Below are positions 43,850-64,000 of a stretch of 64,000 nucleotides of DNA, in pieces (the stretch's first letter is position 1; every line of letters begins with the position of its first letter). Under the pieces are notes generated by a model. The model had not been told where the DNA came from. It saw nothing but the letters and a program-made list of their open reading frames with translations, and did no database searches. Origin of the DNA: Fibrobacteria bacterium (lineage in GTDB: Bacteria > Fibrobacterota > Fibrobacteria > UBA11236); the NCBI GenBank assembly GCA_043732185.1, contig JAYTHY010000074.1, positions 104,114 to 168,113 of the forward strand. The letters run 5' to 3'. A program made the position numbers and the translations under genes.

Positions 43850-45160
43850 TTAGAAATTAAAGGCAGGCATAAAATACAGGAACCAACCCGGTTGCTTAGA
43901 ATAAGCGTCGTTGGTGATTTTTGCCGCGGCCAATTTGCTGGCGGATTTGTCGGCTAAAAATAGCGCTGCCCCTAGAACAATATTAGACTTAGGGTAAAGT
44001 GCTAAATGAGCTTCCAAATTGAATTCTTGTCCATAGGGATCGTCCTGCCCTGATGGGGCAGCTTGAGGCATAAAATAATGATATTGAGGTTTTACGGTGA
44101 CGCGTGGGTTACCACTGGCATTTGGTAGAAACGCGAAATCCCCATCCAAACGAATATCCATCACGCCATACTTTGGGTTATTCACAAAATAGTCCATCCA
44201 GCCATATAGAGCATGAGCGAAATAGTAATTTGCCCGGTACGTATGGATTTTTGTATCCGTTGGATCGTCATCGCCACTCATCATGTCCAAACCCAAGTTG
44301 GCCTTATAGGTATTGATCACAATACCGGCGCGGGTGGCCAGCTGAAACGCACCGTTAGCATAGTCCACGCCCTTTTTGGACACATCACCCATTTGATAGA
44401 TGAACTCTTCTTCAAAAGCAAACATGCCAAGCTTTCCCGCTAGCCTTTCCCCAAAGTATTCCAGATCATAAGCTGCCGACGTGTCACCGGCATATACCGT
44501 ACTGGGAAGACGGCTTTGATCATAGAATCCATATCCTTCAGCGACGATGTCGGGAGTTATTTGATGCGAGTAATACAATCCGTTCAAAAGTAAACGATCG
44601 TTTTTGGCTGCCGTATTTGTGTCTCTAACCAAAAAGGACAGACCAGTCAAATTTCCCACTTCGCCAATCTTATAGTTAAAGGACACGCCGTCAAAGGATC
44701 GCGATGTAGGACTCCATTCCAGAGTGCTCAAAAACCGTCCTGCACCTAGGGTCATTTTCTGCCGTCCTAAAGCGGTTTTGAAATTTCCTTCTTCAATGGC
44801 CAAATATCCTTGTAAGAGATCCACTCCCTTTGCATTGGAGGTGCTGGCCGTCGCTGCATTGGTGCCAACTGGAGGGACTTCCGAACCCATAAATCGGACG
44901 TCTTGCATTTCAACTTTTATCTCCACTTTTTGCGATGGGACGGCTGTGAATCCCAGTCTGGTTCTTAATTGCGTGCTTAAGAATGGGTGATTGGCCAAGG
45001 TATCGCGAATGTCCTTGCTATCGAATTCAGTGCGCGTTCGGACTTGTCCGAAAAACGGCGGTTGCGGTACTGCGTACGGGGACTCGAGCGGCGCGCTCCC
45101 CCAAACAATTCCAATTGTTACGACGGATATAAAGGGGACTAACTTTCCAGCAATACGCAT
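43850..45160 (-). CDS. Alginate-export-family outer-membrane porin
   Basis: Signal peptide, QVRTRTE, QLRTRLG, LGRQ, RSFDG, SGDD, GWMDYF, GQE; terminal FNF; last gene of the nitrate ABC operon. Confidence 0.75.
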   Translation of the reverse strand: MRIAGKLVPFISVVTIGIVWGSAPLESPYAVPQPPFFGQVRTRTEFDSKDIRDTLANHPFLSTQLRTRLGFTAVPSQKVEIKVEMQDVRFMGSEVPPVGTNAATASTSNAKGVDLLQGYLAIEEGNFKTALGRQKMTLGAGRFLSTLEWSPTSRSFDGVSFNYKIGEVGNLTGLSFLVRDTNTAAKNDRLLLNGLYYSHQITPDIVAEGYGFYDQSRLPSTVYAGDTSAAYDLEYFGERLAGKLGMFAFEEEFIYQMGDVSKKGVDYANGAFQLATRAGIVINTYKANLGLDMMSGDDDPTDTKIHTYRANYYFAHALYGWMDYFVNNPKYGVMDIRLDGDFAFLPNASGNPRVTVKPQYHYFMPQAAPSGQDDPYGQEFNLEAHLALYPKSNIVLGAALFLADKSASKLAAAKITNDAYSKQPGWFLYFMPAFNF

Positions 45161-45183: not shown

Positions 45184-46032
45184 TTAAACAAGGCCTGCAT
45201 GCACGCCCGCACCGATCAGATAATGCAGCAACTCTTTGCGAAGCGCAGTATAGAGCGGCACTTCCAATAGGGACTCCCGCGCCCTTGGACGCGGAATATC
45301 TACCTGAAACATTTTGGCGATGGTCGCTTGCGGTCCGTTAGACATGAGAACAATTCGATCCGAAAGAAAAATTGCTTCATCGACATCGTGGGTGATCATC
45401 AGAACAGTTTTTCGATTGTGTTCCCAAATCGAAGTCAATTCATCCTGCATACTGCCGCGCGTCAAAGCATCCAAGGCTCCGAAGGGTTCATCCAAAAGCA
45501 GTACCTGTGGGTTCGCCGCAAAAGCTCGCGCAATCCCGACGCGCTGCTTCATGCCGCCGGAAAGTTGACCCGGTTTTTTGGCCACATGCGGCCCAAGATG
45601 CACCATATCCACATATTTTTTGGCCAGCTCCTCACGAAACTTGCGGTCCTTTTTTGGGTTTACACTGTCAACGGCCACGAGCACGTTTTCGAGTACCGTC
45701 AACCAAGGAGGGAGCGAATGGCTCTGGAAAACAACTGCCCGATCCAAACCTGGCGCAGTCACTTCCTTACCATTCACGGCCACTGTTCCTTCAGTTGGTT
45801 GGTATAAACCTGCCACCATATTGAGCAATGTGGACTTGCCACAGCCGGAATGACCGATGATGCTTACAAACTCACCCTTGGCTATCCTTAAATCCACGCC
45901 AGCCAAGGCATGGAACCGACTTTTTCCATGACCAAAATATTTATGCACTCCGGAAATATCGACGAATTTATCTTCTTTTTCCGATTGGACTTGCGACTGT
46001 TTTTCTGCATGTCTGCCTAGTGTGGATATCAT
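45184..46032 (-). CDS. Nitrate ABC transporter ATP-binding subunit (NrtD/NasD-like)
   Basis: GHSGCGKST, LSGGMKQRVGIARA, LDEPFGALDALTR, ITHDVDEA. Confidence 0.92.
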   Translation of the reverse strand: MISTLGRHAEKQSQVQSEKEDKFVDISGVHKYFGHGKSRFHALAGVDLRIAKGEFVSIIGHSGCGKSTLLNMVAGLYQPTEGTVAVNGKEVTAPGLDRAVVFQSHSLPPWLTVLENVLVAVDSVNPKKDRKFREELAKKYVDMVHLGPHVAKKPGQLSGGMKQRVGIARAFAANPQVLLLDEPFGALDALTRGSMQDELTSIWEHNRKTVLMITHDVDEAIFLSDRIVLMSNGPQATIAKMFQVDIPRPRARESLLEVPLYTALRKELLHYLIGAGVHAGLV

Positions 46033-46812
46033 TCAGGTGCCTACCGTTCCGAATAGGGACGCCAGCTTTGCCACCATTCTATCGAGTAACAGCCCCGTTA
46101 ACCCCACGTAAGTAACCGATACGATAATGTCGCTCATGCGAGACGAGTTCCAAGAATCCCAGATAAAAAATCCAATCCCTACTCCACCCGTCAACATTTC
46201 CGCCGCGACAATTGCCAACCAGGCCATGCCGATGGAAATTCTGAGGCCGGTAAAAATAAAGGGTGCGGCCGATGGCAGCATGATTTTGAAAAAATATCGA
46301 CTGCCTTTTAACTGATAGACCCTAGCGACATTTTCGTATTCAGAGGGTATGCGCATGACTCCCACCGAGGTATTGATGATAATTGGCCATAACGCGGTAA
46401 TGAAGATGACAAATATCGCCGATGGATTTGCCTGATTAAATATGGCCAAGGAAATGGGCAGCCACGCCAAGGGTGGAATCGTGCGAAGAACCTGAAAAAT
46501 GGGATCCACTGCCTTGAATGCCATGCTCGATTTTCCGATCAATATTCCCAACAAGATTCCCACGATGGCCGCAAGCGAATATCCTGCCGCCACGCGTCGC
46601 AATGAAGACAGCAACTGCCAGCCCAGACCCTTATCATTCGGTCCATTATCAAACCAAGGGTGCGCGATAATATTCCACGACTCGGTCACTGTCTTTATTG
46701 GACCTGGTAGAACAACTCCCTCGCGCTGAGAATAAATCTCCCAAAACAGACCAATAAAAAAGAGAGCTAATACCGGCAGAATATAGGTTTGAGCGGGATT
46801 CTTCGTTATCAT
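46033..46812 (-). CDS. nrtB: Nitrate ABC transporter permease
   Basis: GPNDKGLGWQ..SL.RV, LRTIPPLAWLP, AWLAIVAAEML.GG.GIGFFIWD. Confidence 0.92.
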   Translation of the reverse strand: MITKNPAQTYILPVLALFFIGLFWEIYSQREGVVLPGPIKTVTESWNIIAHPWFDNGPNDKGLGWQLLSSLRRVAAGYSLAAIVGILLGILIGKSSMAFKAVDPIFQVLRTIPPLAWLPISLAIFNQANPSAIFVIFITALWPIIINTSVGVMRIPSEYENVARVYQLKGSRYFFKIMLPSAAPFIFTGLRISIGMAWLAIVAAEMLTGGVGIGFFIWDSWNSSRMSDIIVSVTYVGLTGLLLDRMVAKLASLFGTVGT

Positions 46813-48152
46813 TTCCGCCCCGTAGCGCCTTTTTTCCCGTCGATATTTTTGATTTTAAGCTTGGCCAAATAGCCTTCTGGATCGTTTGGGTCGAATGTGA
46901 CACCATCAAAAAAGGTCTCAATACCGCGCGAATCGCTTGCTGGTATCATGGATTCCTGGCCGATCTCTTTGGCGCATTCTTTCCACAAGTCTGCGCGATT
47001 TACTTCGCCGATTACCTTATCATAATCGACTCCGTTGGGCAGGTAACCCCATCTACGCGTTTCCGCCAAAAACCACTTATCATGGCTCTTATATGGAAAT
47101 GAAGCGTGGTCGCGCCAGAATTTCATCCGTTCCCCTTCTTTTGGTTTTCTTTTTCCATCTCCATAGTCTGTGTGCCCTTGGAGACGGGGCAATAAATCTT
47201 CGACGGGACAATTGATCCAGTTTTTTTGCGATAGAATCCTGGCAAGTTCTGGTTTATTTTCATCCTTATCACACCAAATCTGGGCTTCCATTACGGCTTT
47301 AAGCAAAGCCTTGGTTGCGTTTGGATGCGCATCGCACCAATCCTTGCGCATGGCAAATGACTTTTCCGGATGGTCTTTCCAAATTTCCTGAGTCTGGATT
47401 GCCGTATAGCCGATTCGTTGATTGATAAGCTGTTGATTCCAAGGCTCACCGACGCAAAAGGCGTCCATATTGCCCACGCGCATGTTCGCTACCATTTGCG
47501 GTGGTGGAATCACTATTGTAGAGACGTCCAGATCGGGATCAATTCCCCCAGCAGCCAGCCAATAACGAATCCAGTAATTGTGCGTGCCTGTCGGAAATGT
47601 CATTGCGAAGGTGAGTGGTTTGCCCCCTCGTTTTTTCGCCATATCGATCCAGGACTTAAACAGGGAAGCGTCTTTACCAATTCCCGTCTCCTTGTATTTT
47701 TCAGCAACCGAAATGGCTTGGTTATTCAGGTTGAGACGGGCCAGCAAATAGATGGGGACGGGCTTATTGCCCTTGGTTACCAAACCCATGCTGAGCGAAT
47801 ACGCCATAGGAGTGAGCAGATGAGCGCCATCAATACCGCCTTTGTCCGATCCCAATTCCAAATTATCCCGGTTCGCTCCCCAGGACGCTTGTTTTAGAAC
47901 TTCGACATCAGGCATTCCATACTTTGCAAAAAATCCTTTTTCTTTGGCTACCGCCAATGGTGCGAAATCGGTTAATGCGATAAAACCAAGCTTGGCTTTG
48001 GTGGTTTCCGGTTTTACCGGATCGGCTGTAGCCCCCATGGATAGCCCGTTTGCCAGCATGGTTAATGCTAACGCCACGCATGCGGTTGTTGATTTTGCGT
48101 AACTCGCTTTTATGGAATTGAAATATTGGTTACTTGAGGTTACTGCTTGCAT
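46809..48152 (-). CDS. nrtA: Nitrate ABC transporter substrate-binding protein (NrtA/CmpA family)
   Basis: Signal peptide; LGFIALTD, KQASW, AMTFP.GTH, PPPQMVANM, FCVGEPW, HPEK; ATG 48152 with GGAG upstream. Confidence 0.9.
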   Translation of the reverse strand: MQAVTSSNQYFNSIKASYAKSTTACVALALTMLANGLSMGATADPVKPETTKAKLGFIALTDFAPLAVAKEKGFFAKYGMPDVEVLKQASWGANRDNLELGSDKGGIDGAHLLTPMAYSLSMGLVTKGNKPVPIYLLARLNLNNQAISVAEKYKETGIGKDASLFKSWIDMAKKRGGKPLTFAMTFPTGTHNYWIRYWLAAGGIDPDLDVSTIVIPPPQMVANMRVGNMDAFCVGEPWNQQLINQRIGYTAIQTQEIWKDHPEKSFAMRKDWCDAHPNATKALLKAVMEAQIWCDKDENKPELARILSQKNWINCPVEDLLPRLQGHTDYGDGKRKPKEGERMKFWRDHASFPYKSHDKWFLAETRRWGYLPNGVDYDKVIGEVNRADLWKECAKEIGQESMIPASDSRGIETFFDGVTFDPNDPEGYLAKLKIKNIDGKKGATGRK

Positions 48153-48363
48153 TGGGCATACTCCGTCGGCTACACTGCATGCAGCCGCTATTGGTATGTC
48201 CAAAAGCCCGGACGGACCGGAGTAAGCAAGCCCTTGTACTAAGGACTATTAGAAGCTCAAACGCCTCCGCTTATTGACTGCTGCGGTAACGGAGATGTTT
48301 TCTCCGATTTGGAAGTCCGTCCAAATTTCCGCCGCAATCAATCAGTTGGTTTTTGATACGGAC
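48153..48363 (-). promoter_or_regulatory. Long structured 5' leader of nrtA (putative attenuator/ncRNA)
   Basis: ~210 nt between the sigma54 promoter and ATG; three-way-junction-like fold, GGAGGC-loop hairpin, G-U-rich hairpin with U run; 27-nt element shared with the nirA leader. Confidence 0.6.
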
Positions 48364-48375
48364 AGTTGTAATTAA

Positions 48376-48391
48376 AGCAAAGCGCGTACCA
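48376..48391 (-). promoter_or_regulatory. Sigma54 (-24/-12) promoter of the nrtABD-porin operon
   Basis: Minus strand TGGTAC-GCGCT-TTGCT fits TGGYAC-N5-TTGCW. Confidence 0.8.
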
Positions 48392-48442
48392 AGTGAATTT
48401 GATGCGCAATGCCGCACATGATGGCTTGAGACCTTGAATGTG

Positions 48443-49519
48443 TCATCCCGATTTGGACAATAAGGAAACTGTTGGCACGATGTGTTCGGATTTGCCAGTT
48501 TGGAAATGTCTTACAGGAGAACCTCGTGTCGCAGAAACCGAATCGTAATGGAATTTTTCCAAACAAATCGATTCCACATTCAAACGCGTGCACGCCAAGG
48601 ACTCGGCATGCCCATGGCGCTGCATCTGCTCTATATACCAATGGACATGTGACCTGGATGGGAAGTGGGCTCCATCTTGATCAAATTTTCGACTTTGCAT
48701 CGTTTCCGGAATCTTGTCCAACCGTGATCTTAGCGATGCCTCCACCACCGACTTTGGTGTATTTACATATCGCTTGGAAGCGACAATCTCCGCCGCCGTT
48801 TCAATGTTGTCCGGATCCGCCAACCAATCACCTGCCATGGAAAGCGACTGAATCACCATAGCATGCTCTTGTTGGTGCGCGCCATGCCAACCCGCCCTCA
48901 CTGCCAATACTTTTTCGCCTAAACCTGGAAAAAATTCCCGACTGTCTGCCGCCAATCGGCCCAGCTTCGAGGCCATGGCGCGTCGACTCCAAGGATCACC
49001 TACGCAAAACCCGTCGATTTCGTTTTTCCTAAGCCTGCCCACCATTTCCTGCGGTGGTATAATTTTTAAGCTTATTCTTGGCCCAATTGATAAGCCGCCC
49101 ATGGCCAACCAATATCTAAGGAAATATTCTTGTGTCCCTCTCGGGAAAACCACACCCAGACAAAGGGTTCTTTTAAAGTCCGCCGATAACCAGCGGGCAA
49201 GATGTTCAGCTGTTCTTATGCCCTGATTCCACAGCGCATTGGAAAGGATAATGCCATTACCGTTGCGACTCAAGGTAAAGGCATGGCATAAGGCAGGATA
49301 GTTAGGATCTTTTTCCAATACGGATTGTATTGGAATGGTTAGGAGCAAATGTGCAGCATCCAATTGACCAGAGCCAAGATTCTCGCGAATGGCACTCCAG
49401 CTTTGGGCCTTATGCAGTTCCACCGCGATTCCGTGAGCTTCAAAAAAACCTTGCTCTTTGGCGATTGCCAGTAATGCGCAGTCTACTAAGGGAATGAAAC
49501 CGATTTGTAAGTCTGGCAT
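48443..49519 (-). CDS. Cytoplasmic NrtA-like nitrate sensor (NasS-like)
   Basis: IGFIPLVDCA, SWSAIR, AAHLL, RYWLA.GG, IPPQEMV, FCVGDPW; no signal peptide; in nitrate island. Confidence 0.75.
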   Translation of the reverse strand: MPDLQIGFIPLVDCALLAIAKEQGFFEAHGIAVELHKAQSWSAIRENLGSGQLDAAHLLLTIPIQSVLEKDPNYPALCHAFTLSRNGNGIILSNALWNQGIRTAEHLARWLSADFKRTLCLGVVFPRGTQEYFLRYWLAMGGLSIGPRISLKIIPPQEMVGRLRKNEIDGFCVGDPWSRRAMASKLGRLAADSREFFPGLGEKVLAVRAGWHGAHQQEHAMVIQSLSMAGDWLADPDNIETAAEIVASKRYVNTPKSVVEASLRSRLDKIPETMQSRKFDQDGAHFPSRSHVHWYIEQMQRHGHAESLACTRLNVESICLEKFHYDSVSATRGSPVRHFQTGKSEHIVPTVSLLSKSG

Positions 49520-49573
49520 CGACTGGCAGGACGTCGGTTATGGGTGTCCGTCCATGGCGCCATTGCCAAGGAC

Positions 49574-50788
49574 TTAAACTCGCGCTCTGGCGATTTCCGG
49601 GGATCCCCAAGTTGCACGCCAACGAAATTTAACCTTGAACAAAATTCCAAATGCGCATACGCCCAATAATGCGTACATGAGAAATCCAATGCGGTAATCC
49701 CCGCTCCATTGTTTTGAGAGGCCTAAGGAATAGGCCAAGTAAAATCCACCCACACCACCGGCCATGCCGACAAGTCCGGTCAAGGTTCCCATTTCACGTT
49801 GGAAGCGTTGAGGTAACAGCTGAAATACGGCGCCGTTGCCCATTCCCATGGACATCATGGCGACTATAAATAATGCCAGCGTGAGCGCCAGAGTGGTTGG
49901 AAACGCAGCGATCAAAAGCATGGATAAAACAACCATGATGTAAAACCATTGCAGAGCGCGAACACCACCAACTTTATCGGCAATATTTCCGCCAATGGGC
50001 CGGAACATGGAGCCGCAGAATACGCAGGCAGCGGTCAAGTAGCCGGCCGTCGCCGGAGTCAAACCGAATTGGCTGTTAAAGTAAATAACCAAGCTGGATG
50101 CCATTCCCACAAAGCCGCCGAATGTTACCATGTAAAAAAGCATAAACCACCACGCATCCTTCTCTTTAAGGACTTGGAAATATCTGGAAAGTTTTTGTGG
50201 AGGAGGCAAACCGGGAGCATCCTTAGCCATGATAGTGTAGAGAATCATGGTAAGCGAAAGAGGAATGAGTACTAAACCGAATACATTGCTCCAGCCAAAA
50301 TGAGTGGCCAGCAATGGTGCAAATAATGCTGAGAATACCGTTCCGGAATTGCCTGCTCCCGCTATCCCTAAGGCCAAACCCTGAGCTTCAGGCGGATACC
50401 AGCGCGATGCTAAAGGCAAGGCCACTGCAAACGAGGCGCCTGCAACACCCAAACACACGCCCAATAAATAAACTTGGTTCAGACTATGCACACCAAACAT
50501 CCAGGCGCAAAGTAAAGCCGAAAGCACCACTCCCTGGCCTATCAGGCCTGCCTTTTTTGCGCCCAAGGAATCCACCAAAATCCCCATAAACACACGCAGG
50601 ATGGCTCCGGAAAGCACCGGCACCGCCACCATCATTCCTTTTTGCGATGGAGTCAATCCAAGGTCTTTGGCAATGTGGACACCCAAGGGTCCAAGCAAAA
50701 CCCAAACCATAAAACTCATATCAAAATACAGAAAGGCGGCAAACAAGGTGGCGGGATTACCGGCTTTGGCAAAGTCTCTGAGTTTCAT
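49574..50788 (-). CDS. narK: NarK-family MFS nitrate/nitrite transporter
   Basis: TLFAAFLYFD.SFMVW, GASFAVALP.ASRWYP, G.A.GIAGAGN.G, TFGGF, GNGAVFQL.P.RF. Confidence 0.9.
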   Translation of the reverse strand: MKLRDFAKAGNPATLFAAFLYFDMSFMVWVLLGPLGVHIAKDLGLTPSQKGMMVAVPVLSGAILRVFMGILVDSLGAKKAGLIGQGVVLSALLCAWMFGVHSLNQVYLLGVCLGVAGASFAVALPLASRWYPPEAQGLALGIAGAGNSGTVFSALFAPLLATHFGWSNVFGLVLIPLSLTMILYTIMAKDAPGLPPPQKLSRYFQVLKEKDAWWFMLFYMVTFGGFVGMASSLVIYFNSQFGLTPATAGYLTAACVFCGSMFRPIGGNIADKVGGVRALQWFYIMVVLSMLLIAAFPTTLALTLALFIVAMMSMGMGNGAVFQLLPQRFQREMGTLTGLVGMAGGVGGFYLAYSLGLSKQWSGDYRIGFLMYALLGVCAFGILFKVKFRWRATWGSPEIARARV

Positions 50789-50815
50789 GGTACGTTCTCC
50801 TACTCACCGTTTCTA

Positions 50816-50831
50816 AGCAAACGCAATGCCA
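50816..50831 (-). promoter_or_regulatory. Sigma54 promoter of narK-nasS
   Basis: Minus strand TGGCAT-TGCGT-TTGCT, 27 nt upstream of narK ATG; AGGAG RBS follows. Confidence 0.8.
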
Positions 50832-51110
50832 TATTTGTTTGCTGCGAATCATGTATCATGCATGTTACTGTTATTTTTGTCCGCTTATTTAAAACAAAAG
50901 CGTTTGCCAATTTATTTGTACTTGCCAAGCCTAATTCAGTAAATCAATTAAACCTAAAGTCCGCAAAAGATGACCGAAATTGTAAGAACGGAATTGACAC
51001 AACCTGACCATTGGAAACATTGATTTTTATTTAACCGAGCGTTTTGAGGGCCAGCGTCCGCTTTCGCTTTGAATTTTCGGAAATGAACCCATTACCTTGA
51101 TTAAATATTT

Positions 51111-51126
51111 TGGTACGCCCTTTGCG
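51111..51126 (+). promoter_or_regulatory. Sigma54 promoter of the nirA operon
   Basis: TGGTAC-GCCCT-TTGCG. Confidence 0.75.
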
Positions 51127-51265
51127 TTATACAACTGGATTACCGCCAACCGTCTCCGGTCCGTCCGAACCTTTGGTCATCGCAATTCCTCTTTATCAAA
51201 GGAGGATGGGCCATGGCATTGGCTATGGAAATACCCGGCGATGGAGGCATGTCGGGAGATTTTTC

Positions 51266-53050
51266 GTGATACCTAAGGGAACACCTGGAGGGCCATTCTC
51301 CACAGAACAGAAGGAATACCTGGATGGGTTTTTCCGCGCCCAAAACCGGAAGATTGAAGTTGAGCCCTCGACTCCAGCATCCAATCAGGAAAACGTTCTT
51401 CATCTCGCCCTAGGCAAACGCGCCCAACAAGCATGGATAGCCGCAGGCAAGCGACTCTCCAAGGAAGAGAAAATAAAGTTTGATGCCAACCCTTTAGATG
51501 CATGGCCACGCATCGCCGAGCTTTCCGCTCAAAATGCCCTACCCGAGGGCGAAGATCTCTATCGCCTTAAAACCCACGGCCTTTGGAATGTGTCTCCGGC
51601 GCAAACCGCCATGATGTGTCGATTGAGAATTCCCGGTGGCGTCCTCAACGCTCATCAAGCGCAAGCTATCGCCAAAGCCGCAAGCGCCTACGGCGGAGGC
51701 TATGTGGATATTACCACGCGGGCAAATTTCCAGATTCGTGAGATCCCCGCCAAGCATATGCTCTCACTGCTCACCGACCTCCATGAATGCGGGATAACCC
51801 CACGCGGATCGGGTGCAGACAATATCCGCAATGTCACCGGTAACGCCACATGCGGCATCGACAAAAATGAATTCTACAATGTCCTGCCTCTCTGTCGGCA
51901 ATTGCATCACCTCATCCTCCATGACCGAGATCTTTTCGGGCTGCCACGCAAATTCAACGTCGCCTTTGACGGCGGCAACACCGTCTCCTCGCTCGAAGAC
52001 ACCAATGACATTGGTTTAAAAGCCGTCAAAATATTGGACAGACCAGGCCTGAAGTCTGGAATTTATTTCAGAGTTGCCCTCGGTGGCATCACCGGCCACG
52101 GAGATTTGGCCAGAGACACGGGCCTTCTGCTCAAGCCGGAAGAATGCCTGCCCGTCATCACGGCCATGATTAAAGTCTATATAGCCAGCGGTGACCGAGG
52201 CAATCGCAAACGCGCCCGGCTCAAGTACGTGCTTGATTCCTGGGGCTTCGAAAAATTCCTGAGCGAAACACAGAAGCTGCTCACTTTTGAATTGCGGCGC
52301 TTACCCGAATCCGATTGCTTGTCCGCGCCCCCCATAAATAAAGTCGCTCATTTAGGTATTCACCACCAGCGCCAAACTGGACTGAACTACATCGGCGTCG
52401 ATGTGCCGGTCGGGAGGCTCACAGTGCAACAATTGCGCGGATTGGCAAACCTCTCCAAACACTATGGGTCCGGAACGCTACGGCTTACCGTATGGCAAAA
52501 CCTGATCCTATCCGATATTCCCGACGCTGACCTAAGCCATGCCATCCAGGACCTGCATGCCCTAGGACTCAATCACGAGGCCAATCCCATCAGCGCTGGC
52601 ATTGTCGCCTGCACGGGCGCCGAAGGATGCAAATTCGGGATGGCGCCCACAAAATCTACGGCGTTAGCCATAACCGATTGGCTTAAGGACAGAATAACTT
52701 TGGAACACCCCGTCAATATTCATTTGACCGGTTGCACCCATTCCTGCGCGCAGCATTTTATCGGTGACATTGGACTATTAGCCACTGGCGTAGACACGGA
52801 AAACTATAAAGGCCCGGGCTTCCATTTCTTTGTGGGAGGTGGCTATGGCCGCACCGGCCGCATGGCAGTAGCCGCAGTGCGTTTTGTCCCCGTCCCCCAA
52901 GTCCCGATGGAAATCGAACGCATTCTGAATATCTACCTCGAACTGCGCATGCCGCAAGAAAGCTTTTCGGATTTCACCGGAAGACAGGACAGCCAAGCCT
53001 TGCAGGCGTTATTCCTGGATGCGGCCTTAACTACCAAGGAACAATTATGA
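51266..53050 (+). CDS. nirA: NirA-family siroheme nitrite reductase
   Basis: RLRIPGG, ITTRANFQ, GADNIRN, LPRKFN, ACTGAEGC and TGCTHSC Fe-S/siroheme ligands; start reassigned to GTG 51266 (GGGAG upstream) because the ORF-track start lies in the promoter. Confidence 0.88.
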   Translation: MIPKGTPGGPFSTEQKEYLDGFFRAQNRKIEVEPSTPASNQENVLHLALGKRAQQAWIAAGKRLSKEEKIKFDANPLDAWPRIAELSAQNALPEGEDLYRLKTHGLWNVSPAQTAMMCRLRIPGGVLNAHQAQAIAKAASAYGGGYVDITTRANFQIREIPAKHMLSLLTDLHECGITPRGSGADNIRNVTGNATCGIDKNEFYNVLPLCRQLHHLILHDRDLFGLPRKFNVAFDGGNTVSSLEDTNDIGLKAVKILDRPGLKSGIYFRVALGGITGHGDLARDTGLLLKPEECLPVITAMIKVYIASGDRGNRKRARLKYVLDSWGFEKFLSETQKLLTFELRRLPESDCLSAPPINKVAHLGIHHQRQTGLNYIGVDVPVGRLTVQQLRGLANLSKHYGSGTLRLTVWQNLILSDIPDADLSHAIQDLHALGLNHEANPISAGIVACTGAEGCKFGMAPTKSTALAITDWLKDRITLEHPVNIHLTGCTHSCAQHFIGDIGLLATGVDTENYKGPGFHFFVGGGYGRTGRMAVAAVRFVPVPQVPMEIERILNIYLELRMPQESFSDFTGRQDSQALQALFLDAALTTKEQL

Positions 53051-62575: not shown

Positions 62576-62693
62576 CCCTGGCACCGACCCACTCTCCCAC
62601 GGCAAATGACCGTAGTACCATAGGCGCGTTGAGGCTTAACTTCTGTGTTCGGGATGGGAACAGGTGTGGCCCTCAAACTATAGGCACCAGGGA
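62576..62693 (-). rRNA. rrf: 5S rRNA
   Basis: Minus strand reads CCTGGTGCC...CACACCTGTTCCCATCCCGAACACAGAAGTTAAG...GGGAGAGT.GGT..GTGCCAGG. Confidence 0.96.
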
Positions 62694-63022
62694 ATTTCGT
62701 AGGCAAAGGCAACCGGCTAGCCGGTTGCTTAGAGAATGCCATTAGCATTCTCCATAATCTCACTTAAAAACCGTTCCTCTCATCTTGAGAAGCTTATACA
62801 CTCCCCCGAGGGAGTGGCTGGTTAACATTGTACTTGGAAGCGCAATAAGATGTGAAGGGCGTCTTGAGGACAAGACGCTTTCAAGCCATTATTATATCGT
62901 CAAGGGCAATCGCCTTACGGCAATCGCTCTAACCAGATTAACTGGTTACCTTCGAATCCTTATATGGAGAGCAGGTGATGGATAACCTTGCGGTTATACC
63001 TATTCCTGTCAGTCTTACAAGT

Positions 63023-64000
<978 letters not shown>

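Follow-up and report, generated by a model that had tools for sequence, protein, structure and literature searches.

The 64,000-nucleotide (nt) stretch of Fibrobacteria DNA that we analyzed (hereafter, the window) contains a nitrate-assimilation cluster in which two genes, nrtA and nirA, are preceded by copies of a conserved 31-nt leader hairpin, CCAACYGA ... CCGGUCCGYCCGGNCYUUUGG, which we term the core. A first-pass annotation had drawn attention to a structured domain in the nrtA leader, complementary to an element shared with the nirA leader, and had read it as an attenuator that may also act in trans. We find that this domain is an insertion within the core, that the shared element is the 3' half of the core, and that short forms without the domain exist, including the nirA leader of the window. 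The observation was largely right, and its reading as an attenuator and source of a small RNA is mostly not supported. We favor, with a probability a little above one half (about 0.55), the view that the core is a cis-acting switch ahead of nitrate/nitrite-assimilation genes, elaborated in the nrtA leader of this genus by a two-domain insert. The previously undescribed hairpin that holds the domain is, to us, a more interesting object than the domain itself.

Architecture of the core hairpin

Leaders that carry the core follow a common plan, consisting of a sigma54-type promoter, often a 5' hairpin, (G)CCAACYGA, a linker, and (Y)CCGGUCCGYCCGGNCYUUUGG. The short form folds into one irregular hairpin: stem P1 (CCAA:UUGG) leads through a 2x2 or 2x1 internal loop and a G-C pair to a bulge, beyond which stem P3, (N)CCGG:CCGG(N), is capped by the apical pentaloop UCCGY. 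P3 is 4-5 base pairs (bp) long and is followed by GCUUUUGG. The bulge is the insertion site. About 35 of 50 copies keep the linker, measured from CCAAYYG to GG, to 5-6 nt; in 15 it extends to 63-130 nt at that position. Across copies, insert length goes from 2 nt up to about 130 nt, with a linker of 2-3 nt in G014. When relatives were searched with the leader, its ends proved to be kept and its middle did not. The genome from which the window comes has just two copies of the core, and the window holds both forms, short in the nirA leader and long in the nrtA leader:

51146..51176, plus strand: short-form core of the nirA leader (CCAACCGUCUCCGGUCCGUCCGAACCUUUGG), no insert; 57.9 bits with covariance model R1
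48342..48349, minus strand: 5' half of the core in the nrtA leader (CCAACUGA); P1 5' strand CCAA at 48349-48346; G 48343 pairs with C 48206
48200..48220, minus strand: 3' half of the core in the nrtA leader (CCGGUCCGUCCGGGCUUUUGG); P3 48220-48217/48211-48208, loop UCCGU 48216-48212, P1 UUGG 48203-48200

Elsewhere, at locus L185 (G027:C27:4300-6100), a further core-like 3' half (GGTCCGCCCGGCATTTTGG, then CCATAC) lies just downstream of a masked stretch, and the 3' half alone is readable.

Compensatory changes in P1

In an alignment of 34 short copies (A2), 92.8% of cells pair. P1 is changed on both sides in four variant copies, each of them lying between a sigma54-type promoter of its own and a nitrate-related gene: GCAA..UUGC in the nrtA leaders of genomes G018 and G026 and the FNT leader of G001, and CCAG..CUGG in the narK leader of G015. 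Adding two of the four variants (alignment A3) gives three pairs with double changes against 0.7 in shuffles, a number reached by 1 of 500 shuffles, and P1 is paired in 100% of the 35 distinct rows. The lower part of P3 contains UG pairs in seven rows, which fits an RNA on the transcribed strand. An alternative apical register, GGUCC/GRNCY, was rejected on inspection of the alignment by eye; its 3' positions vary freely and its 5' side is invariant.

Distribution and downstream genes

The core pattern is present in 26 of 32 genomes of one Fibrobacterota family, usually as two to four clustered copies (the family tallies take in G011, on which no sequence-level claim rests). Four family genomes without NirA above the cut-off are also without the motif; in G008 nirA is cut at a contig end, and G021 has nirA with a sigma54 promoter yet lacks the motif. 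Covariance model R1 matches 8 of 11 family genomes and none of 140 other genomes sampled from the phylum. An exact-pattern scan of 596 gigabases of species genomes returned 71 loci, 20 of which also have the 5' half and/or the promoter; by their titles these are 17 Fibrobacter-lineage metagenome-assembled genomes, 1 'uncultured bacterium' and 2 'uncultured Bifidobacterium'. The remaining loci look like chance or coding repeats. A 23-nt exact match in L018, a genome of another family, was set aside as chance since it falls within a long open reading frame, as were four one-mismatch hits (G012:C27, G007:C140, G007:C272 and G009:C81) that have neither 5' half nor promoter.

The genes that follow the core are consistently linked to nitrate and nitrite. 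Among 30 first downstream open reading frames scanned, 13 are NIR_SIR, 9 NMT1_2 (nrtA), 3 MFS/narK, 1 FNT and 1 an alginate-export porin, with 3 assigned to no family; one core copy lies ahead of an FeS/molybdopterin nasA operon. The promoter pattern TGGYAN-N5-YTGC occurs within 300 nt upstream of 47 of 50 tabulated motif copies, and RpoN is encoded in the genome. Searches of the 4227 models of Rfam 15 found no family that matches the leader, at the gathering threshold or at E up to 10 (47900-51500). The only Rfam matches in the window at the gathering threshold are 23S and 5S ribosomal RNA (rRNA), and the single match in 47900-51500 is a spurious one to a long non-coding RNA on the other strand. 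A literature search did not find the motif in print; the main text of PMC5737381, as distinct from its supplementary motif lists, contains no nitrate, nitrite or narK term.

Alternative partners for the core 3' strand

The strand that completes the core can also pair downstream, and its partners differ between gene classes. In the nrtA leader of the window the elements are arranged as follows:

48150..48203, minus strand: expression platform; UUGGACAUAC (48203-48194) can pair with GUAUGCCCAA (48161-48152); hairpin e 48187-48167; Shine-Dalgarno sequence GGAG 48164-48161

The partner GUAUGCCCAA lies, in genus nrtA leaders, between the Shine-Dalgarno sequence and the AUG. RNAalifold predicts a UUGG.ACAUAC:GUAUG.CCAA helix in 11 of 11 such leaders, all of them invariant; the corresponding anti-initiation duplex in the window has an energy of -12.0 kcal/mol, which 22 of 300 shuffles reach. 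The nirA leaders of genera g4 and g2 offer a different pairing, of GGGCCUUUGG with the start-codon-containing CCAAUGGCCC. A terminator-like alternative is formed in the G022 narK leader (L148:5468-5560, plus strand) by the core 3' strand and CCAAGGCU, followed by UUUUG; there, on the predicted pairing, the same core may use a transcriptional platform. Of 46 copies compared, 13 have a duplex of the 3' strand with the initiation region whose energy falls within the lowest 5% of shuffles, where about 2.3 such copies are expected; most of the 13 are g4/g2 nirA and nrtA leaders. For the window's nrtA leader, the minimum free energy (MFE) and the energies of constrained folds lie close together:

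MFE state: -86.6 kcal/mol
anti-initiation helix enforced: -83.9 kcal/mol
P1 enforced: -79.2 kcal/mol
duplex of hairpin a (see below) and core enforced: -77.4 kcal/mol

From the alternative downstream partners, the duplex energies and the close spacing of the constrained states, we infer that the core is a switch with class-specific expression platforms.

A genus-specific insert in the nrtA leader

The insert (48342-48224, minus strand) comprises about 120 nt in two domains and sits in the bulge of the 31-nt core:

48273..48342, minus strand: Domain I, the junction of the first-pass annotation; closing stem 48342-48334/48281-48273 plus 48332-48329/48286-48283
48326-48307, minus strand: hairpin a of Domain I, loop CGGACU 48319-48314
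48306-48290, minus strand: hairpin b of Domain I, loop AAACA
48224..48272, minus strand: Domain II; closing pairs AAGC 48272-48269/GCUU 48227-48224, hairpin c 48268-48251, hairpin d 48246-48230
48358..48363, minus strand: 5'-proximal GUCCGU, upstream of the insert; repeats the core loop sequence in direct orientation, close to where the transcript is predicted to start

The proposed junction, in which AUUGAUUGC/GCAGUCAAU and GCGG/CCGC enclose the hairpins AUUUGGA-CGGACU-UCCAAAU and CGGAGA-AAACA-UCUCCG, was borne out as the MFE fold of 48258-48345 (minus strand, 88 nt; -34.6 kcal/mol, z -4.68), a stability equaled by none of 200 shuffles. The Domain I fold persists in the 221-nt leader and is found in 11 of 11 same-genus nrtA leaders, with compensatory changes in its closing stem at columns 14-81, 16-79, 20-75 and 22-73 of the RNAalifold analysis; over the genus leaders as a whole, 12 of 43 pairs show double changes. 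Domain II has two hairpins in 10 of 11 genus leaders and one, without hairpin d, in G007. At this site, other genera carry inserts of 63-102 nt with unrelated sequences. A mobile or repeated element was rejected because the insert is single-copy in the genome, as was an inverted duplication, since local alignment of the insert with the reverse-complemented nirA leader stayed within the shuffle range in all 10 genomes tried. Domain I is a genus-specific accessory module of the nrtA leader, not a free-standing attenuator.

A candidate contact between hairpin a and the core loop

Hairpin a presents ACGGA, the exact complement of the core apical loop UCCGU. Its ACGGA(C) columns show at least 90% conservation, up to full invariance, and form the best-conserved unpaired stretch of Domain I, where other loops and stems drift. 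ACGGA itself is found in 10 of 11 genus genomes (G004 has ACGCA) and in 8 of 8 long-form leaders from metagenomes, and it stays in or beside the loop though the stem that presents it has been rebuilt across lineages (UUUGGA/UCCAAA in G000, GGUUU/GGACC in most, GGUU/AACC in the G012 group). The first-pass annotation had described a longer seed, GGACGGAC...CGGAG, as the reverse complement of CUCCG-GUCCGUCC, which can be read directly from the sequence. Among its complementary blocks only ACGGA is kept, the CGGAG block not being conserved in genus relatives.

In the window, the hairpin-a segment forms a duplex of -19.7 kcal/mol with its own core, and the duplex of the whole insert with that core (G000) is reached by 8 of 300 dinucleotide shuffles. 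Between the loops ACGGA and UCCGY, the only variable position (Y) changes without compensation; the lack of covariation here reflects the near invariance of both. Of 13 genus nrtA leaders, 9 have the 5'-proximal GUCCGU near the start, among them short-form leaders of G014, in which hairpin a is missing. Since GUCCGU is complementary to ACGGAC of hairpin a, a three-element scheme is possible. Most likely, judging from these predicted pairings, ACGGA contacts the core apical loop in cis and so would tune the nrtA switch.

The foremost alternative, which we consider possible if rather unlikely, is that the insert is a passive spacer: a self-folding expansion tolerated at the bulge, with ACGGA kept for local reasons (the stability of hairpin a, or a contact unrelated to the core) and its complementarity to the core a coincidence. 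Consistent with this, the unrelated inserts of other genera have no special complementarity to the core, short forms do without any insert, complementarity lies within the shuffle range in most genus members, and the identity of the insert to the reverse-complemented nirA leader does not exceed that of shuffles. The behavior of ACGGA argues otherwise, in that the best-conserved unpaired stretch of the domain holds its position while its stem is rebuilt and is exactly complementary to the motif's most conserved loop. We therefore place the cis contact first, the passive spacer second and action in trans third.

Relationship to known leader systems

Bacterial nitrate assimilation typically couples a general nitrogen signal at the promoter to a nitrate-specific step in the leader RNA, the latter classically involving ANTAR antiterminators. 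The leaders described here resemble those of the NalA/nasF type (NasT/NasR; Pseudomonas, Klebsiella and Paracoccus) as outlined in PMC10783516, in that a nitrate-operon leader follows a nitrogen-regulated promoter; the likeness would extend to a nitrate-specific step after initiation. As in the NasS-NasT systems presented in PMC3795266, a cytoplasmic NrtA-like protein is encoded alongside. NalA, according to PMC10783516, has two tandem hexaloop hairpins with A1 and G4 and a Rho-independent terminator; the present leaders, in contrast, have one irregular hairpin, capped by a UCCGY pentaloop, and neither a terminator in the nrtA leader nor an ANTAR domain in the genomes searched was found. The Domain I hairpins depart from the ANTAR loop rule (hexaloops with A1 and G4) as well, hairpin a (CGGACU) having C1 and A4 and hairpin b (AAACA) a loop of 5 nt. 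The ANTAR domain (PF03861) is absent from the window's own genome, which is 100% complete, and from all 61 relatives searched (0/61), and the same search matches 3 of 4 unrelated control genomes. A search for the NIT domain gave no match there or in the control genomes and is uninformative.

In other respects the core is reminiscent of riboswitches and protein-bound leaders, which are likewise small conserved elements upstream of linked genes, with 3'-strand partners that differ by gene class and a variable-length stem tolerated at one fixed site. It differs from these in its lack of an Rfam match and its sparse covariation. In the guanidine-II (mini-ykkC) riboswitch, two hairpins with ACGR loops contact each other, and the nrtA leader, which may control translation, similarly has an ACGG-holding loop close to a second hairpin whose loop is complementary. 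Unlike in guanidine-II, the two loops differ (ACGGA and UCCGU) and would form an ordinary antiparallel kissing helix of 4-5 bp, the genes concerned are nitrate genes, and Rfam gives no hit.

A bolder proposal is that nitrate, nitrite or a nitrogen-status metabolite is sensed directly in the leaders of nirA, nrtA, narK, FNT and nasA, with the core acting either as sensor in a new class of riboswitch or as binding site for a new RNA-binding regulator of non-ANTAR kind; in the nrtA leader of this genus, ACGGA would serve in addition as an antisense loop to the sensor's apical loop. We regard this as improbable; we know of no precedent for a riboswitch that senses nitrate or nitrite, and a literature search found no riboswitch for these anions. 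If it held, coupling of the nrtA and nirA leaders through the ACGGA loop could take place not only in cis but also in trans.

Attenuation and action in trans

The first-pass annotation had envisaged a transcript of about 150-165 nt ending at a G-U-rich hairpin with a U run (AGGGCUUG...CGGGCUUUU), with the resulting RNA, or the leader, opening the nirA element in trans. A precedent for such behavior is the Listeria SreA RNA, a riboswitch-derived, terminated leader that acts in trans, and the idea shares with it a 5' leader fragment that base-pairs with another mRNA leader. The SreA-type mechanism needs a terminated short transcript, however, and a consensus terminator scan found no site in the nrtA leader (48150-48370). 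The arms assigned to the terminator belong to conserved structures of Domain II: AAGGGC (48235-48230) pairs with GUCCUU as the 3' strand of hairpin d, GCUU (48227-48224) closes the domain with AAGC (48272-48269), and both are kept in relatives. The domain is probably not a terminator-based attenuator. What stands of the proposal is that the leader is structured and, through the alternative partners of the shared element, probably switchable.

Pairing with nirA looks strongest in the window, where the complementarity exceeds chance and, as the earlier annotation had noted, is slightly better for nirA than for the leader's own core: few or no shuffles reach the observed duplexes. The hairpin-a segment pairs with the nirA core at -20.7 kcal/mol, and the whole insert does so at -28.1 kcal/mol, a value that 0 of 300 shuffles reach, against 8 of 300 for the whole insert with the own core. 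The segment also prefers the nirA core of the same genome over its own in 10 of 11 genus genomes, a comparison that used a segment pre-selected around ACGG, and hairpin a keeps its A opposite the U of the nirA loop where its own loop has become C. In the fair test, which shuffles the whole insert, the nirA-core duplex is reached by 15 or fewer of 300 shuffles in just 3 of 11 genus genomes (G000, G002 and G007); the extended seed-target match is specific to G000 and G002, and in most relatives the complementarity of the whole insert lies within the shuffle range. The nirA-core variants GAUCC, GAGCC and GCACC have no compensating change in hairpin a among relatives, so that the expected covariation of seed and target did not appear. 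The nirA core is present, and hairpin a absent, in G014, of the same genus, and in other genera. The own core, in cis, would moreover out-compete a target in trans. A separate search of the window's own genome for another RNA bearing the GGACGGAC seed gave 109 occurrences, 6 of them in low-coding places and none convincing. The results of the fair test, the uncompensated changes in the nirA core and the occurrence of that core without hairpin a lead us to favor action in cis over action in trans; on these sequence comparisons trans action on nirA is unlikely, and we consider the combined attenuator and trans-acting RNA a long shot.

Least credible is a purely DNA-level explanation, in which GGTCCGTCC, GTCCGT and ACGGAC would be operator sites downstream of sigma54 promoters with no RNA structure: the near invariance of the core and the recurrence of its pieces in both orientations in the nrtA leader (48363-48358, 48320-48314 and 48218-48210) are in keeping with it, but all roughly 50 copies share one orientation relative to transcription, the halves lie 2 to about 130 nt apart and are separated by self-complementary sequence, P1 changes are compensated in four variants, the G-U pairs are valid on the sense strand only, and the core is not palindromic. 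A variable, self-folding insert at a fixed site, the single orientation and the G-U pairs all fit an RNA rather than a DNA operator.

Genomic context of the leaders

The nitrate-assimilation cluster of the window and its sigma54-type promoters are arranged as follows:

43850-45160, minus strand: alginate-export-like porin
45184-46032, minus strand: nrtD
46033-46812, minus strand: nrtB
start 48152 (AUG 48152-48150), minus strand: nrtA
48377..48391, minus strand: nrtA sigma54-type promoter, TGGTAC-N5-TTGC; GG 48390-48389, GC 48378-48377
48443-49519, minus strand: cytoplasmic NrtA-like protein of 358 amino acids, similar to NasS or to the C-terminal regulatory domain of NrtC; Pfam NMT1_2; adjoins the leader
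49574-50788, minus strand: narK
50817..50831, minus strand: sigma54-type promoter of narK and the nasS-like gene, TGGCAT-N5-TTGC
51111..51125, plus strand: nirA sigma54-type promoter, TGGTAC-N5-TTGC
from about 51206, plus strand: nirA

After nirA, the plus strand continues with genes for a CysJ-like flavoprotein, an FeS/DmsC-like protein and a molybdopterin nitrate reductase. A TGGYAY-N5-TTGC element thus stands ahead of each of nrtA, nirA and narK. The narK gene and the gene for the NrtA-like protein have their own promoter and a short leader of about 25-30 nt (window 50786-50831) that lacks the core motif, unlike narK of genus g4, which carries it.

The NrtA-like protein has its best PDB matches in the C-terminal regulatory domain of cyanobacterial NrtC/CmpC (E 3e-54), with periplasmic NrtA weaker (E 8e-38), and a homologue is encoded in 5 of 5 relative clusters examined. 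Since it is closest to the NrtC/CmpC regulatory domain, its target may be the transporter rather than RNA: instead of a NasS-type protein that partners an RNA-binding one, this may be a detached subunit that regulates the transporter.

Other features of these clusters were seen in passing. A fusion of a PP2C phosphatase and a Ser/Thr kinase lies beside narK in three relatives (L148:6635-8500, L143:8253-9989 and L144:7022-8740) and is not in the cluster of the window. At 51213 (plus strand), the ATG homologous to the NirA start of relatives opens a frame of just 18 codons, MALAMEIPGDGGMSGDFS and a stop (window 51206-51310), whose TGA overlaps a GTG at 51266 that is in frame with the main NirA frame. 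Genome G010 reads straight through this region (MAQDLAGGKKPPGDKLIP...), and the sequence of G002 is the same as that of the window; the short frame may encode a leader peptide, may reflect a genuine frameshift followed by a coupled restart, or may stem from an assembly error common to both. The window ends with a 5S rRNA and the 3' part of a 23S rRNA (62576-64000, minus strand).

Discussion

Under the switch that we favor, regulation would act in two layers. Nitrogen limitation would act through sigma54, and a nitrate- or nitrite-specific signal would stabilize or disrupt the core through a putative factor of a non-ANTAR kind. When the core 3' strand (GGNCYUUUGG and its flank) pairs upstream, the core would form; alternatively the same strand would pair downstream, with the translation-initiation region in several classes of leader or within a terminator-like hairpin in at least one narK leader. 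In the genus nrtA leaders, the helices of Domain I would bring the core halves together, and the cis contact between ACGGA and UCCGU, as a loop-loop contact or as strand exchange, would tune the switch.

A number of observations temper our confidence in this switch and in its cis contact. Just one pair covaries on alignment A2, and covariation support for the core is thin because most of its positions never vary; the CCAG..CUGG variant was, in addition, found with a structure-aware covariance model, which favors kept pairs. The duplex of the 3' strand with the initiation region is within the shuffle range in 33 of 46 copies, including g1 nirA and narK leaders. An initial measure, the count of contacts in MFE folds, was rejected and replaced by duplex energies: 35 of 47 copies satisfied it, as did shuffled 5' segments in 65% of trials. 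With P1 enforced, the window's nrtA leader is less stable than either its anti-initiation state or its MFE state, and enforcing P1 frees just the CCAA beside the AUG. As for the contact, the own-core duplex stands beyond shuffles only in G000 (1 of 11 genomes at 15 or fewer of 300), long inserts of other genera lack such a block, four giving no signal in the shuffle test and G022 being borderline (own core reached by 16 of 300 shuffles), and the own loop has changed from U to C at least twice with no matching A-to-G change in hairpin a.

Across a family of uncultured freshwater and sediment Fibrobacterota, the two-layer layout of nitrate assimilation, with a sigma54 promoter, a leader element and a cytoplasmic NrtA-like protein, is kept without an ANTAR protein. 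At 31 nt the core is compact enough for synthesis, and for assays that look for a new regulator or ask whether the RNA senses nitrate or nitrite directly. The nrtA leader, in which a 120-nt module sits in the bulge of the proposed switch and holds a loop complementary to that switch's apical loop, would be a natural case of tuning by an accessory domain.

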